From: a virus
Lineage: Duplodnaviria > Heunggongvirae > Uroviricota > Caudoviricetes
DNA: 11,561 nucleotides
IMG/VR virus record: IMGVR_UViG_2850756110_000001
Strand: one strand, 5' to 3'
Shown in pieces: positions 740-5,995 of this stretch (positions within the stretch are counted from its first letter, which is position 1; the number at the start of each line of letters is the position of its first letter). The notes beneath the pieces were generated by a model. It worked only from the letters and a program-made list of their open reading frames with translations, was not told the DNA's origin and searched no databases. The position numbers and the translations under genes were made by a program.

Positions 740-1645
740 CTATATTTCCAGACATCTGTTATCACTTAACCCATTACAAGCCCGCTGCCGCAGATATTCC
801 CGTGGCGAGCGATAACCCAGCGCACTATGCGGATGCCATTCGTTATAATGCTCGAACGCCTCTGCAAGGTTCTTTGCTGCCGTTAACCCGTCTGGTTTGG
901 GCATGATACTGATGTAGTCACGCTTTATCGTTTTCACGAAGCTCTCTGCTATTCCGTTACTCTCCGGACTCCGCACCGCCGTGTTCTTCGGTTCAAGTCC
1001 CAACATCCGGGCGAACTGGCGTGTTTCATTAGCCCGGTAGCATGAACCATTATCCGTCAGCCACTCCACTGGAGACGACGGAAGATCGTTGCCGAAGCGG
1101 CGTTCCACCGCACCCAGCATGACGTCCTGTACTGTTTCACTGTTGAAGCCGCCGGTAGTCACCGCCCAGTGCAGTGCCTCACGATCACAGCAGTCCAGCG
1201 CGAACGTGACACGCAGTCTCTCTCCGTTATCACAGCAGAACTCGAACCCGTCAGAGCACCATCGCTGATTGCTTTCTTTCACGGCCACTCTGCCTGTATG
1301 TGCCCGTTTCGATGGTGGTACAGCAGGTTTTCGCTCAAGCAACAGCGCATTCTGGCGCATGATCCGGTAAACACGTTTGGCATTGATCGCAGGCATACCA
1401 TCAAGTTCTGCCTGTCTGCGAAGCAGCGCCCATACCCGACGATAACCATACGTGGGCAGCTCTCCGATAACATGGTGTATACGGAGAAGCACATCCGTAT
1501 CATCAGTGTGACGACTGCGGCGGCCATCCATCCAGTCATCGGTTCGTCTGAGAATGACGTGCAACTGCGCACGCGACACCCGGAGACAACGGCTGACTAA
1601 GCTTACTCCCCATCCCCGGGCAATAAGGGCGCGTGCGCTATCCAC
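740..1645 (-). CDS. insD: IS2 transposase OrfB (InsD), DDE integrase-like catalytic domain
   Basis: 301-aa ORF ([20 protein letters not shown]...[14 protein letters not shown]...) recognised as IS2 InsD; overlaps orfA as expected for IS3-family frameshift expression. Confidence 0.9.
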
Positions 1646-1968
1646 TTTTTTGCCCGTCCATATTCAACGGCTTCTTTGAGGAGTTCATTTTCCATCGTTT
1701 TCTTGCCGAGCAGGCGCTGGAGTTCTTTAATCTGCTTCATGGCGGCAGCAAGTTCAGAGGCAGGAACAACCTGTTCTCCGGCGGCCACAGCAGTAAGACT
1801 TCCTTCCTGGTATTGCTTACGCCAGAGAAATAACTGGCTGGCTGCTACACCATGTTGCCGGGCAACGAGGGAGACCGTCATCCCCGGTTCAAAGCTCTGC
1901 TGAACAATTGCGATCTTTTCCTGTGTGGTACGCCGTCTGCGTTTCTCCGGCCCTAAGACATCAATCAT
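1603..1968 (-). CDS. insC: IS2 transposase OrfA (InsC), HTH DNA-binding protein
   Basis: 121-aa product [41 protein letters not shown]... starting at the ATG at 1968. The track ORF extends 15 codons further upstream from a non-ATG start. Confidence 0.9.
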
Positions 1969-2059
1969 CTGTACTCCAATGACTAGTCTAAAAACTAGTA
2001 TTAAGACTATCACTTATTTAAGTGATACTGGTTGTCTGGAGATTCAGGGGGCCAGTCTA

Positions 2060-2064
2060 CAGTT
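2060..2064. repeat. IS2 target-site duplication, right copy (CAGTT)
   Basis: Direct repeat of 724-728 flanking the IS2 insertion. Confidence 0.85.
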
Positions 2065-2455
2065 CTTTCAATGGGTGGTTTCCCAGACGGGAAACCAGGT
2101 ATGCAGCCATTCGAGTTTTTTCTTTGTGAGTTGTAGCTGCAATATCTCCATTTTTCAGTCGCGTGTCCTGTATTTTCAGATATCGATCAACCCATGCCTT
2201 TAATCTGATACCCCGACGTTTTGTTGCTGACGGACTTTCATCAATTTTGCGCATGAAATATTCAGCTTCTGCTGCAGCTATTCGCTGATTGGCTGTGGAA
2301 GCGATTTTTTCTGCCTTACCTTTGTCTGTTCCGAGTCCGTGAAATTTTCCAGTCACAGGATTTTTATACTGGTAGTAAACTCTGCCAGTTCTGCGATCAA
2401 ACTTTTCGTAAAGACCGGCTACGTCAGTGCTGTTTTTTCGTGGCCTCGGTGACAT
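2060..2455 (-). pseudogene. int: Phage tyrosine integrase, N-terminal part (arm-binding/core-binding region), interrupted by IS2
   Basis: Minus-strand ATG at 2455..2453; translation MSPRPRKNSTDVAGLYEKFDRRTGRVYYQYKNPVTGKFHGLGTDKGK...KEL has the lambdoid Int N-terminal pattern. After removing IS2 and one TSD copy the frame continues directly into 728..1 (...KEL|EVRDFAL...), giving ~372 aa. Confidence 0.85.
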
Positions 2456-2726: not shown

Positions 2727-3002
2727 GTGGCTTCCATTTCCATCAGATGTCCTTCCTGCTCCGCTACTGAAGGCGTGGTGCGTAACGGCAAAAGCACTGC
2801 CGGACATCAGCGCTATCTCTGCTCTCATTGCCGTAAAACATGGCAACTACAGTTCACTTACACCGCCTCTCAGCCCGGTACGCACCAGAAAATCATTGAT
2901 ATGGCCATGAATGGCGTCGGATGTCGCGCCAGTGCACGCATTATGGGCGTTGGCCTCAACACGGTTTTACGTCACTTAAAAAACTCAGGCCGCAGTCGGT
3001 AA
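2727..3002 (+). CDS. insA: IS1 InsA
   Basis: 91-aa product [58 protein letters not shown]..., recognised as IS1 InsA. Confidence 0.9.
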
Positions 3003-3424
3003 CCTCGCGCATACAACCGGGCAGTGATGTGATTGTCTGCGCTGAAATGGACGAACAGTGGGGCTACGTCGGTGCTAAATCACGTCAGCGCTGGCTGTTT
3101 TACGCGTATGACAGGATACGGAGGACGGTTGTGGCGCACGTCTTCGGTGAACGCACTCTGGCCACACTGGAGCGTCTTCTGAGCCTGCTGTCGGCCTTTG
3201 AGGTCGTGGTATGGATGACGGATGGCTGGCCGCTGTATGAATCACGCCTGAAGGGAAAGCTGCACGTTATCAGCAAGCGTTACACTCAGCGCATTGAGCG
3301 ACATAATCTGAATCTGAGACAACATCTGGCAAGGCTGGGACGGAAGTCACTGTCGTTCTCAAAATCGGTGGAGCTGCATGACAAGGTCATCGGGCATTAT
3401 CTGAACATAAAACACTATCAGTAA
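2921..3424 (+). CDS. insB: IS1 InsB frame (expressed as InsAB' by -1 frameshift)
   Basis: 167-aa frame ...[36 protein letters not shown]...[13 protein letters not shown]..., recognised as IS1 InsB. Confidence 0.85.
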
Positions 3425-3439
3425 GTTGGAGTCATTACC

Positions 3440-3550
3440 GCTTCGGCTTTGAACTCTTTAGAGTAACGTTGTTTTTTTCTGCTCATTATTAGCTCCTTCT
3501 GATGCCATTCTATTTCAGGAAGGAGTGTCCGTTAAACTCAGGCTACCTCA
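3440..3550 (-). mobile_element. IS600-like (IS3 family) left-end remnant: terminal IR plus first 16 codons of orfA, truncated by IS1
   Basis: Minus strand reads TGAGGTAGCCTGAGTTTAACGGACACTCCTTCCTGAAATAGAATGGCATCAGAAGGAGCTAATA-ATG AGC AGA AAA AAA CAA CGT TAC TCT AAA GAG TTC AAA GCC GAA GC: a TG... IS3-family terminus, AAGGAG SD, and MSRKKQRYSKEFKAEA, which matches my recollection of the IS600 IRL and OrfA N-terminus. It is cut at 3440 by the IS1 terminus. Confidence 0.75.
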
Positions 3551-4049
3551 CTGTGATATTGCTGCAGACAAGGCAAAACTTTTACTGGAAAAAGGCGGGG
3601 AAATTGCTGTCCGGTTTAAAATCCCCGAAAACGTCAATCTTGAGACAACCAGAAACAAGTATGCCTTTGGTTTGTACTGGCGAATAGCGGAATGGCCGGG
3701 TGAGGGTGGTGAAGGCCATCTGAGTTCTTTCTTTGTCCAGTCAGATAAAGCCAGTATTAATGTTGCATACCATCATACAGTTAATCAACAAAAAGAACTT
3801 GGCACGTTTGGCGCATTCGACCATGACTGGCATACGCTTGCATTTAAATTTAAGGGCAGTAACAGCATTAATGTTACTCCGGTGCTTGATGGTGTGGATG
3901 GACAGGCGTTTGACCTGGTGAAATGGGCCAATACTGCTAATGGACTCAACAGGTTTGTCATTACGGATATTACAGGTAGTGCAGAAACCTACCCTGTACT
4001 TATTGATACGGTGGAAGTTAAAGCAAACAAAGCTGGAGCAGCCGCATAA
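3551..4049 (+). pseudogene. Orphan 3' fragment (~166 codons) of an unknown gene whose 5' part was displaced by the IS600 insertion
   Basis: Open frame runs from inside the IS600 end to TAA at 4047-4049 with no in-frame ATG. The only start candidate (GTG 3525) lies inside the IS600 inverted repeat with zero-spaced SD. Product (...WHTLAFKFKGSNSINVTPVLDGVDGQAFDLVKWANTANGLNRFVITDITG...) has a beta-rich, lectin/ConA-like look; function not established. Confidence 0.5.
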
Positions 4050-4053
4050 TTGC

Positions 4054-4091
4054 TAAAAAAAGCCGCCAGCGGCAGGAATGGAAGCTGGCGG
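4054..4091 (-). terminator. Intrinsic-terminator-like hairpin; strong on minus strand (stem + U7), weak on plus strand
   Basis: 8-bp GC-rich stem CCGCCAGC (4063-4070) / GCTGGCGG (4084-4091), 13-nt loop. On the minus strand the stem is followed by a run of 7 T (plus-strand A-run 4055-4061). It sits 5 bp after the stop of the 3551-4049 frame. Confidence 0.45.
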
Positions 4092-4139
4092 AGGTAATCC
4101 CAATGGAGAATGTAAAGAAAAGATGCTTTCGTACATTGG

Positions 4140-4170
4140 TTTTTTAAATGAAAACAATTCTCATTGTCAA
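4140..4170 (-). promoter_or_regulatory. Candidate sigma70 promoter on minus strand (perfect -35 TTGACA, -10 TTTAAA/TAAAAA)
   Basis: Minus strand reads TTGACA-atgagaattgttttca-TTTAAA. Would fire toward the 4054-4091 terminator about 80 nt away. Sequence only, no expression data. Confidence 0.25.
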
Positions 4171-4394
4171 CCATAACGGTAAGAAATTATGACATTTATT
4201 CATCAGGTGATGCTGTACTTCTGTACGGCGGTCTGTGCTGTATCTTCTTTCGGGTGGGTACAGGGCTGTGCGCGATTTCTGGTACAGGCAGATTGATAAA
4301 AGGGCCGCTGAGAAAATCAGCGCCAGTCAGTCAGCCGGAAGCAAACCCGAAGAACCCGTTACTCCTTAACAACCCCTTTCAGCGAGAAAATCCC

Positions 4395-4640
4395 ATGTCA
4401 GAAATCACATCCCTGGTCACTGCAGAGGCAGTGAAGGAAGTCCTGCGCTCTGAAGAAGTCCGGAGCGCACTGAAACAGAAACTTCGCCTGAATCTTGAGT
4501 CGCGTCTTGATGCAGAAGTGGATGCCATTCTGGATGAGCTGCTGGGCGTAGCAGTGGTTCCTGAGCCGGAAGGTATCGCGGGTGACGGGAGTGCTTCAGA
4601 TGGCGGTGAACCTACACCTGACAGCGACATGATGATGTAA
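4395..4640 (+). CDS. Hypothetical small acidic protein (81 aa), moron-like position upstream of the lysis cassette
   Basis: ATG at 4395 with weak GAGA SD; product [81 protein letters not shown] has a helical N-terminal half and an acidic, low-complexity tail. The track ORF 5' extension (4164-4394) has implausible composition and no RBS. Confidence 0.5.
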
Positions 4641-4652
4641 GCATGCGCAAGG

Positions 4653-4685
4653 GACCATCGGTGTGTGCCGGTGGTCTTTATATTG
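4653..4685 (+). terminator. Candidate intrinsic terminator between the acidic ORF and the holin gene
   Basis: GACCATCGG (4653-4661) pairs with CCGGTGGTC (4668-4676) (9 bp incl. one G-U), 6-nt loop, then TTTATATTGTTGTG. Confidence 0.4.
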
Positions 4686-5955: not shown

Positions 5956-5995
5956 AAAACCCCGTTTGTTGGCACCAAGCGGGGTTTTGTGTTTC
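5956..5995. terminator. Bidirectional intrinsic-terminator-like hairpin between endolysin and Rz
   Basis: Perfect 9-bp stem AAAACCCCG (5956-5964) / CGGGGTTTT (5980-5988), extended by an inner TTGG/CCAA pairing, followed on plus strand by TTTTGTGTTT and on minus strand by TTTTTACTTTTATT. Confidence 0.5.

Follow-up and report, generated by a model that had tools for sequence, protein, structure and literature searches.

Does the gap between an esterase gene and the lysis genes of a decayed prophage hold a gene for a small RNA and, if so, to which known RNA is it related? The question is raised by a stretch of 11,561 nucleotides (nt), IMG/VR record IMGVR_UViG_2850756110_000001 (Duplodnaviria; Heunggongvirae; Uroviricota; Caudoviricetes), here called the window, which is a decayed lambdoid prophage of the Shiga toxin (Stx) type. 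On its minus strand a perfect -35 hexamer faces a GC-rich hairpin and a run of U, and the original prediction, made from the letters alone, read these as the promoter and terminator of an RNA of about 80 nt. We report here that the element, which lies between the esterase stop codon and the lysis genes and is antisense to the late genes, is probably a self-contained gene for an Hfq-type trans-acting small RNA (sRNA) of about 80 nt, a diverged paralogue of Esr41 housed in the late region of lambdoid (Stx-type) prophages. The analysis shows its sequence features, its conservation, its homology to Esr41, a slot common with the Pas and EcOnc sRNAs and the complementarity of its seed; that the element is transcribed and that its RNA binds Hfq and represses targets is inferred. 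The window contains the hexamer TTGACA 4 times where 7.5 +/- 2.7 copies would be expected, which is not above chance; the case for the element being more than chance is its conservation and homology, and the motifs themselves do not carry it.

Features of the element

Homologues of the element occur in related prophages and fall into sub-types, W1 (that of the window) to W4, beside a longer related type, W5. The parts of the window copy are as follows.

4170..4165, minus strand: -35 hexamer TTGACA of the sRNA promoter, read from the sequence
4146..4141, minus strand: candidate -10 TAAAAA, a 4/6 match to TATAAT with A at position 2 and without T at position 6
4137..4055, minus strand: predicted sRNA of 78-83 nt, 5' end placed at 4134-4137 and 3' end in the U-run 4061-4055
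4134..4126, minus strand: 5'-terminal block GUACGAAAG; ACGAAAG is conserved in W1, W3 and W4, CGAAAG in W2
4111..4103, minus strand: putative seed AUUCUCCAU, single-stranded, complementary to Shine-Dalgarno plus AUG
4102..4093, minus strand: small weak hairpin GGG-AUUA-CCU, by fold prediction; Esr41 counterpart GGGG-UAUU-CCCU
4091..4063, minus strand: terminator hairpin, 8-bp stem CCGCCAGC (4091..4084) / GCTGGCGG (4070..4063), 3' arm as RNA GCUGGCGG
4061..4055, minus strand: U7 tail, which belongs to the terminator and would be the 3' end bound by Hfq; it stops 5 nt past the stop codon of the esterase (4047-4049)

When read from the minus strand, the TTGACA hexamer and the hairpin with its 8-bp GC stem stand where they had been placed. 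The -10, which had been called acceptable, is present as TAAAAA at a spacing of 18 nt (spacer 4164..4147) or as TTAAAA if the spacer is taken as 17 nt, and is non-consensus, without T at -7. Judged by its sequence, TAAAAA would serve as the -10, and across the sub-types this hexamer reads TAAAAA or TAGAAA at 17-18 nt. Between the -10 and the predicted start (4136-4145 on the minus strand, and the same place in loci L009-L088), a run of A varies from about 5 to 9 among near-identical variants; these differences suggest slippage, by which the output of the promoter or the 5' end could be tuned. About 50 nt of U-rich sequence separate the -10 from the terminator stem.

The 5' end of the RNA was placed by alignment to the 5' end of Esr41 and to sub-type W2, and with the family's covariance model 4137..4055 scores 109.5 bits. 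The folds predicted for W1, W2 and Esr41 all leave the seed unpaired. The register of the small hairpin at 4102..4093 moves between sub-types, so that its support is weak. Folding of the 82-nt RNA, proposed as a check with RNAfold, gave -19 kcal/mol (z = -2.2, with 3 of 200 shuffles as good), which beats the shuffles, if modestly.

The terminator stem has 7 G-C pairs of 8 and encloses a loop of 13 nt (4083..4071). Behind it, the minus strand reads C4062, seven T at 4061..4055 and then A4054; the seven U claimed at the outset are thus present, in a run that does not reach 4054. On the plus strand an A7 precedes the hairpin and no U-run follows it, and the terminator can therefore end minus-strand transcription only. 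An intrinsic (Rho-independent) terminator calls for a GC-rich hairpin with a U-run right behind it in the direction of transcription; this arrangement is found on the minus strand, and a U-run of 6-8 is kept in every variant.

It had also been stated that promoter and terminator enclose no plausible open reading frame (ORF). Two mechanical minus-strand ORFs do overlap the element (4157..4053, 34 amino acids (aa), TTG start; 4174..3989, 61 aa, ATG start), and among close relatives they switch frame or vanish; the variant in prophage Sp5 of strain Sakai has no minus-strand ORF of at least 20 aa. A small protein gene is ruled out by ORFs that are unstable in frame or missing among the variants.

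Conservation and prevalence

Conservation was assessed in 80 IMG/VR loci sampled through the neighbouring DUF826 protein and so not chosen on the RNA. Related prophages lacking either promoter or terminator had been named in advance as grounds for giving up the small RNA; both parts are kept, and a W1-W4 homologue was found in 72 of the 80 loci, the longer W5 in 6, a W5/W1 recombinant (locus L074) in 1 and something else in 1. A -35 of the form TTGAC(A/T) was seen in all 34 distinct slot sequences (81 loci), at a fixed distance from the start of the DUF1378 gene, despite flanking bases and a spacer that vary by sub-type. The sequence UUCUCCAU is the same in Esr41 and in every W1-W4 variant, and W5 alone lacks it. 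Conservation is thus laid out in islands, TTGAC(A/T), UUCUCCAU, the stem arms and the U-run, while variation lies in the 5' part, in the loop of the terminator and in the length of the A-run behind the -10. The 5'-terminal block GUACGAAAG is also nearly invariant in the alignment of phage variants. The window copy is 100% identical to the copies at 12 other loci (E. coli ML35 and 11 IMG/VR contigs); strains with an identical copy include, beside ML35, FORC_069 and O104:H4 C227-11. Strain Sakai has a copy in Sp15 as well as in Sp5, and the Sp5/933W variant is that of Sakai and EDL933.

Copies of the element were found in 151 phage records, nearly all from Stx1- or Stx2-converting phages, VT2-Sakai among them. 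Of 5,426 complete E. coli genomes, 917 carry it, the median copy number being 2 and the highest 7. These copies are almost entirely unannotated. When one genome per bacterial species was scanned for the pattern, nothing was returned outside Escherichia/Shigella besides chance hits, and the only further returns were true Esr41 (E. coli, Shigella flexneri).

The recombinant in L074 (1169-1255, minus strand) joins a 5' half of W5 type to a terminator of the W1 (window) type, and shows module exchange inside the sRNA gene. W5 itself (L062, L033, L038, L057 and L088; ~1132-1234, minus strand) is about 100 nt long and lacks UUCUCCAU. Its 5' hairpin ACACCG...CGGUGU is kept via G-U changes in three variants, and its terminator has a 9-bp stem enclosing a 36-nt insert. 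W5 may be a separate sRNA with other targets.

Homology to Esr41

Esr41, also listed as EcOnc14, is an experimentally characterised, Hfq-dependent trans-acting sRNA of enterohaemorrhagic E. coli (EHEC) O157:H7 (PMC5286369). It pairs with the ribosome-binding sites of cirA, chuA and bfr and thereby represses these genes, gives resistance to colicins Ia/Ib and affects fitness in low iron (PMC5286369; PMC8065619). The reference used here was the genomic copy from O157:H7, in SpLE1 near iha. The Rfam Esr41 model (RF02676) aligns end to end with 4129..4055 on the minus strand (model positions 1-74 of 74). A covariance model made from the phage variants only, with Esr41 left out, finds Esr41 at its annotated coordinates and at full length (26.3 bits, E = 4.7e-4). 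In Smith-Waterman alignments controlled by dinucleotide shuffles, promoter plus RNA scored 40 against Esr41 while the shuffles scored 16.2 +/- 2.3 (z = 10.5, 0/1000), and the RNA alone reached z = 9.3 (0 of 1000 shuffles). With body and terminator aligning with Esr41 and an equal promoter layout, the claim of a stand-alone small RNA of about 80 nt is supported.

Both RNAs share the core UUCUCCAU.GGG.AUU.CCUCCGCC, the terminator CGCC[A/G]GC...GCUGGCG and a U-run. The order of parts is also common to them: 5' hairpin, single-stranded U-rich seed, small hairpin, terminator. The predicted folds agree on seed, small hairpin and terminator, and the 5' hairpin is weak in the window variant. The promoters have a common layout and differ in the -10 (TTGACA-18-TATATA in Esr41, TTGACA-18-TAAAAA in the window).

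Esr41 is 72 nt long whereas the window RNA is about 80 nt, and the terminator loops differ. The 5' domain reads GAUGC-UCUAG-GCAUC in Esr41 and GUACGAAAGCAUCUUUUCUUUAC in the window RNA, and that of sub-type W2, GAUGUCGAAAGCAUC, is intermediate to Esr41 (10/15 identical). The window RNA further carries a conserved ACGAAAG block, the complement of cirA +17..+23, which Esr41 lacks. The places in the genome differ as well, Esr41 sitting near iha and the ter cluster in SpLE1 / O-island 43 and the window element in a lambdoid late region. The element lies below the score for Rfam membership and in another genomic place than Esr41, and is apparently an unnamed prophage-borne sRNA of the Hfq type.

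Predicted targets and mechanism

The seed of Esr41 is complementary to the Shine-Dalgarno sites of chuA and cirA, and so is that of the window RNA. The seed AUUCUCCAU is a perfect 9-nt complement of chuA -13..-5; the match is also 9 nt in Esr41, and 12 nt in W4. UCUCCAU of the window RNA is a 7-nt complement of cirA -13..-7, and the 5'-terminal block GUACGAAAG is a perfect 9-nt complement of cirA +17..+25, which makes the block a possible second pairing site.

Net cofolding energies were computed against the initiation region of cirA and compared with 60 body-shuffled controls. The window RNA (W1) gave -11.6 kcal/mol (2/60 controls as good) and the Sp5 variant (W3) -11.0 kcal/mol (likewise 2/60), while no control equalled Esr41 at -15.5 kcal/mol or W4 at -8.6 kcal/mol. 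PasA (-3.5 kcal/mol) and PasC (-7.5 kcal/mol), two sRNAs treated below, did not beat their shuffles. Homology and seed matches taken together suggest that the window RNA may repress chuA and cirA.

By the mechanism we propose, RNA polymerase would start at TTGACA-18-TAAAAA, facing away from DUF1378 and against the late operon, and would stop at the GC stem and U7, 5 nt beyond the esterase stop codon. The RNA would consist of a weak 5' hairpin, a U-rich single strand with the invariant AUUCUCCAU and a small hairpin ahead of the terminator, and its U-tail and U-rich body would bind Hfq. The seed AUUCUCCAU would then pair with Shine-Dalgarno regions of the form CAUGGAGA(A/U), as in chuA and cirA. 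The expected outcome would be lower levels of the haem and catecholate-siderophore receptors and, via CirA, less sensitivity to colicins Ia/Ib.

Other small RNAs of the slot

The slot and strand of the element hold known sRNAs in other prophages, in keeping with the small-RNA architecture read from the sequence at the outset: PasA and PasC, validated by Northern blot, and the Hfq-CRAC candidates EcOnc51 and EcOnc52. PasA (85 nt) and PasC (79 nt) of enteropathogenic E. coli (EPEC) E2348/69 are Northern-confirmed and Hfq-dependent (PMC8550237); they lie between esterase and holin on the antisense strand (synteny in bioRxiv 10.64898/2026.05.13.724894), with PasC reaching 2 nt beyond the esterase stop at its 3' end (PMC8550237 table S6). 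EcOnc51 and EcOnc52 were found in EHEC Sakai (PMC4104026). These four and the window element share the slot, the strand and a similar length (79-85 nt against about 80 nt), as well as TTGACA with an A-rich -10 (17-nt spacer, in the window 18 or 17 nt) and a GCCAGC/GCUGGC terminator stem with U-run, which in PasC and EcOnc52 also abuts the esterase stop.

Synteny suggested that the element might be PasA or PasC itself. This is refuted by sequence, and the two are positional analogues only. The bodies of PasA, PasC and the EcOnc RNAs showed no detectable homology to the element with either covariance model (~10 bits, E ~2), and alignment to these slot-mates gave z = 2.3-3.6 (PasA and PasC 2.3-3.3), mostly from hexamer and stem. 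None of the W-type loci gave a match to PasA or PasC in a BLAST search with a word size of 7. The seed of PasA, GCCAGCACCU in the 5' arm of the terminator, is not conserved; the window has GCCAGCUUCC there, and only the GCCAGC stem bases are shared. The PasA/PasC family was defined by BLAST at > 75% query coverage. According to Zhu et al., PasA occurs in 25 phage genomes and most phages resembling Pas-carrying prophages are without a Pas gene; the window element is in 151 phage records. Occupancy of the slot by this RNA offers a simple explanation for the missing Pas genes.

The terminator loop of PasA (L003 3916-3960, minus strand) holds UCUCCA and CGAAAG, both of them short cirA-complementary motifs of the window RNA. 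PasA was considered as a cirA regulator and rejected, with no net binding by cofold and stored RIL-seq rows that pair cirA with FnrS, not PasA. Two tandem promoter-RNA-terminator units stand in the slot of E2348/69 PP2 (L003 3775-4000, minus strand) and of Sakai Sp12 (L007 1480-1684, plus strand), where PasA or EcOnc51 comes first and an EcOnc52-like unit, directly next to the esterase stop, comes second. A 'minor' PasA form of 236 nt is probably read-through to the second terminator.

AsxR, AgvB, STnc100 and PasD are likewise small RNAs of Stx-type prophages near the esterase gene. They lie upstream of it (from Q/stx to nanS-p), whereas the window element lies downstream, and AsxR and AgvB are sponges of core sRNAs, 51-60 nt in length. 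Identity with AsxR/AgvB or STnc100/PasD was rejected, the locus being different and the models RF02703, RF02702 and RF02076 giving no match in the window at gathering thresholds or in 3900-4400 at E up to 10; these models do match related loci.

Genomic context

A first guess of P2-like tail genes or a type I toxin was given up when BLAST showed a lambdoid late region. The neighbourhood of the element, with its insertion sequences (IS), is as follows.

743-2013, minus strand: IS2, abutting the integrase fragment
2060-2455, minus strand: lambda-type integrase, fragment with the arm-binding N-terminus
2921-3421: IS1, upstream of the esterase remnant
3525..4049, plus strand: nanS-p-like SASA sialate esterase, remnant with the C-terminal DUF6645 domain (Pfam and annotation of related records)
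4189..4371, plus strand: DUF1378 gene, divergent from the sRNA promoter, frameshifted
4395-4640: DUF826, followed by a class II holin and lysozyme, then by IS66 and IS110

The esterase has been cut down by IS1 to its C-terminal DUF6645 domain, with homology to intact genes beginning near 3550, and the sRNA terminator stands directly against its stop. Compared with E. coli ML35 and phage VT2-Sakai, DUF1378 has lost 2 bp near 4233-4234, so that its frame breaks after about 15 codons and an ORF of 35 aa is left in place of about 60 aa; the adjoining sRNA gene is intact. Missing from the window are the gene of the antiterminator Q, pR' and, upstream of the esterase, the moron region (STnc100/AsxR in related loci). 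Without Q and pR', late transcription probably does not cross this copy any more.

Three further hairpins were observed nearby. Inside DUF1378, and upstream of the promoter of the sRNA, the minus strand has a terminator-like hairpin (4322-4306) that could shield the sRNA gene from antisense read-through. The interval from the DUF826 stop (4640) to the holin start (~4717) has a strong hairpin of 13 bp with a U-rich tail (4650-4679, plus strand), which could act as a terminator or control translation of the holin. After the lysozyme gene, a near-symmetrical hairpin AAAACCCCG...CGGGGUUUU (5956-5988, plus strand) looks like a bidirectional terminator.

Weighing the alternatives

Several results weigh against an Esr41-like sRNA gene, and they are given here beside the outcome of the general scans. 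In a permissive Rfam scan of 3900-4400 (E up to 10), the match to the Esr41 model scored 20.7 bits (E = 0.14) and stayed far below the gathering score (102 bits); genuine copies of Esr41 reach 103.4 bits, and the threshold lets through only near-identical copies. Rfam at curated thresholds has no match anywhere in the whole window. Promoter parts alone align marginally with Esr41 (z = 2.0, 48 of 1000 shuffles). The promoter joins a perfect -35 and an 18-nt spacer to a -10 without the highly conserved T at -7, and it was not listed by the promoter scan, because that scan requires a T at the end of the second hexamer. The 13-nt loop is long for an intrinsic terminator, and as it exceeds the loop limit of 8 in the terminator scan, the full stem went unreported and just the inner 5-bp version at 4075..4063 was given. 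There are 0 compensatory pairs in the stem across the variants and hence no covariation support, the stem being invariant. The 5' hairpin of Esr41 type, clear in W2, is degraded in the window variant. No published transcript was found for this variant: the tables of Tree et al. have none for the copy in Sakai Sp5, and reviews and a paper on the nanS-p region do not mention one. This orthologue (chromosome ~1270645-1270730, placed by its offset from AsxR) is not among the Hfq-binding EcOnc candidates up to EcOnc64, where Esr41 and EcOnc51/52 are listed. Predicted pairing with bfr is no better than shuffles. For chuA, not even Esr41 itself reaches significance in the cofold statistic, which therefore has little power. 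Finally, the window is a decayed prophage remnant, and this copy could therefore be an inert passenger.

The last point leads to the possibility that the element descends from an sRNA gene and is now silent or non-functional, with a promoter too weak for use, persisting by linkage to the lysis cassette and by phage spread. The -10 without T at -7, the want of an Hfq-CRAC candidate at the Sakai Sp5 copy, the IS insertions, truncated esterase and frameshifted DUF1378 of the decayed prophage, and an identity between sub-types (~85%) similar to that of neighbouring genes would all fit such a relic. We nevertheless consider it unlikely. Conservation is patterned, with -35, seed and stem arms invariant and the 5' part and flanks variable; recombinants such as L074 retain a complete promoter, body and terminator; the window copy has stayed identical at 12 other loci while the adjoining gene decayed; and Esr41, with an equally non-canonical promoter (TATATA at 18 nt), is expressed. 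The element might instead be a cis-antisense regulator of the phage late transcript, its RNA being perfectly complementary to the stretch of the pR' late mRNA that lies between esterase and DUF1378. By RNase III cleavage there, or by interference with convergent late transcription, it could then tune the lysis cassette, in ways compatible with a role in trans. Its orientation opposes esterase, DUF1378, DUF826, holin and lysozyme, its position between the esterase stop and DUF1378 is fixed in all sampled prophages, and PasA in the equal slot forms RIL-seq chimeras with the 3' end of the adjoining esterase gene (PMC8550237 tables). However, Esr41 as the closest relative acts in trans from SpLE1, with no late operon around it, and in the window Q and pR' are absent, so that there is probably no late transcript to act on. 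The body is exchanged among unrelated sequences in the slot (W1-W5, PasA/C, EcOnc52), where pairing in cis would tolerate any sequence. The invariant UUCUCCAU island is better explained by targets in trans, because a cis-antisense RNA pairs whatever its sequence. The description of the element as antisense to the late genes was thus right as to orientation, action in trans in the manner of Esr41 is more likely, and regulation in cis has, like the relic, a low probability.

Two further readings are much less probable. In one, the RNA would be an antitoxin-like partner of DUF1378, resembling the type I pairs tisB/istR-1 or zorO/orzO. The DUF1378 product is about 60 aa with a hydrophobic N-terminus, and its start codon lies 18 nt from the sRNA -35 on the opposite strand. 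We know of no toxicity of DUF1378, and consider this pairing very improbable: the sRNA does not overlap the coding region or ribosome-binding site of DUF1378, Esr41, PasA and PasC occur without an intact DUF1378 neighbour, and in the window DUF1378 is frameshifted while the sRNA is intact. In the other, a TTGACA would by chance face an unrelated terminator, or the minus strand would encode a small protein, as the frequency of the hexamer, no commoner than chance, and the overlap of the mechanical ORFs of 34 and 61 aa might allow. Yet the element is conserved as a unit from promoter through body to terminator, the RNA shares homology with Esr41 in body and terminator, there is no upstream minus-strand gene to terminate, and the ORFs are frame-shifted or absent in close relatives; to coincidence or coding we give next to no credence. 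A trans-acting sRNA paralogous to Esr41 thus remains the preferred reading.

Implications

A broader and more speculative proposal is that the junction between esterase and lysis genes is a dedicated site for exchangeable sRNA cassettes, of which the Esr41 paralogue would be the commonest occupant in Stx1/Stx2 phages, clamping cirA at two sites and also chuA, so that gain of an Stx phage would rewire iron uptake. We regard this as possible yet doubtful. The slot would have a constant shell, made of the TTGACA promoter and a terminator abutting the esterase stop, into which the bodies W1-W5, PasA/C and EcOnc52 could be swapped and recombinants like L074 could arise. The transcript of cirA would be clamped at the Shine-Dalgarno sequence via AUUCUCCAU and at codons 6-9 via the 5'-terminal GUACGAAAG, and that of chuA at the Shine-Dalgarno sequence. 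If this were true, acquisition of an Stx phage alone would rewire iron uptake, give resistance to colicins Ia/Ib and back up Esr41 in EHEC.

The Rfam threshold for Esr41 is too strict for paralogues, and automatic annotation misses them. If the sRNA is expressed, an unannotated regulator with the seed of Esr41 would be carried by about one sixth of the complete genomes of E. coli and by the majority of the Stx-converting phages sequenced, among them the Stx2 phage of O157:H7 Sakai. Such a regulator could mask or modify the phenotypes of esr41 deletions in EHEC, and control of iron uptake would be tied to the carriage of toxin phages.

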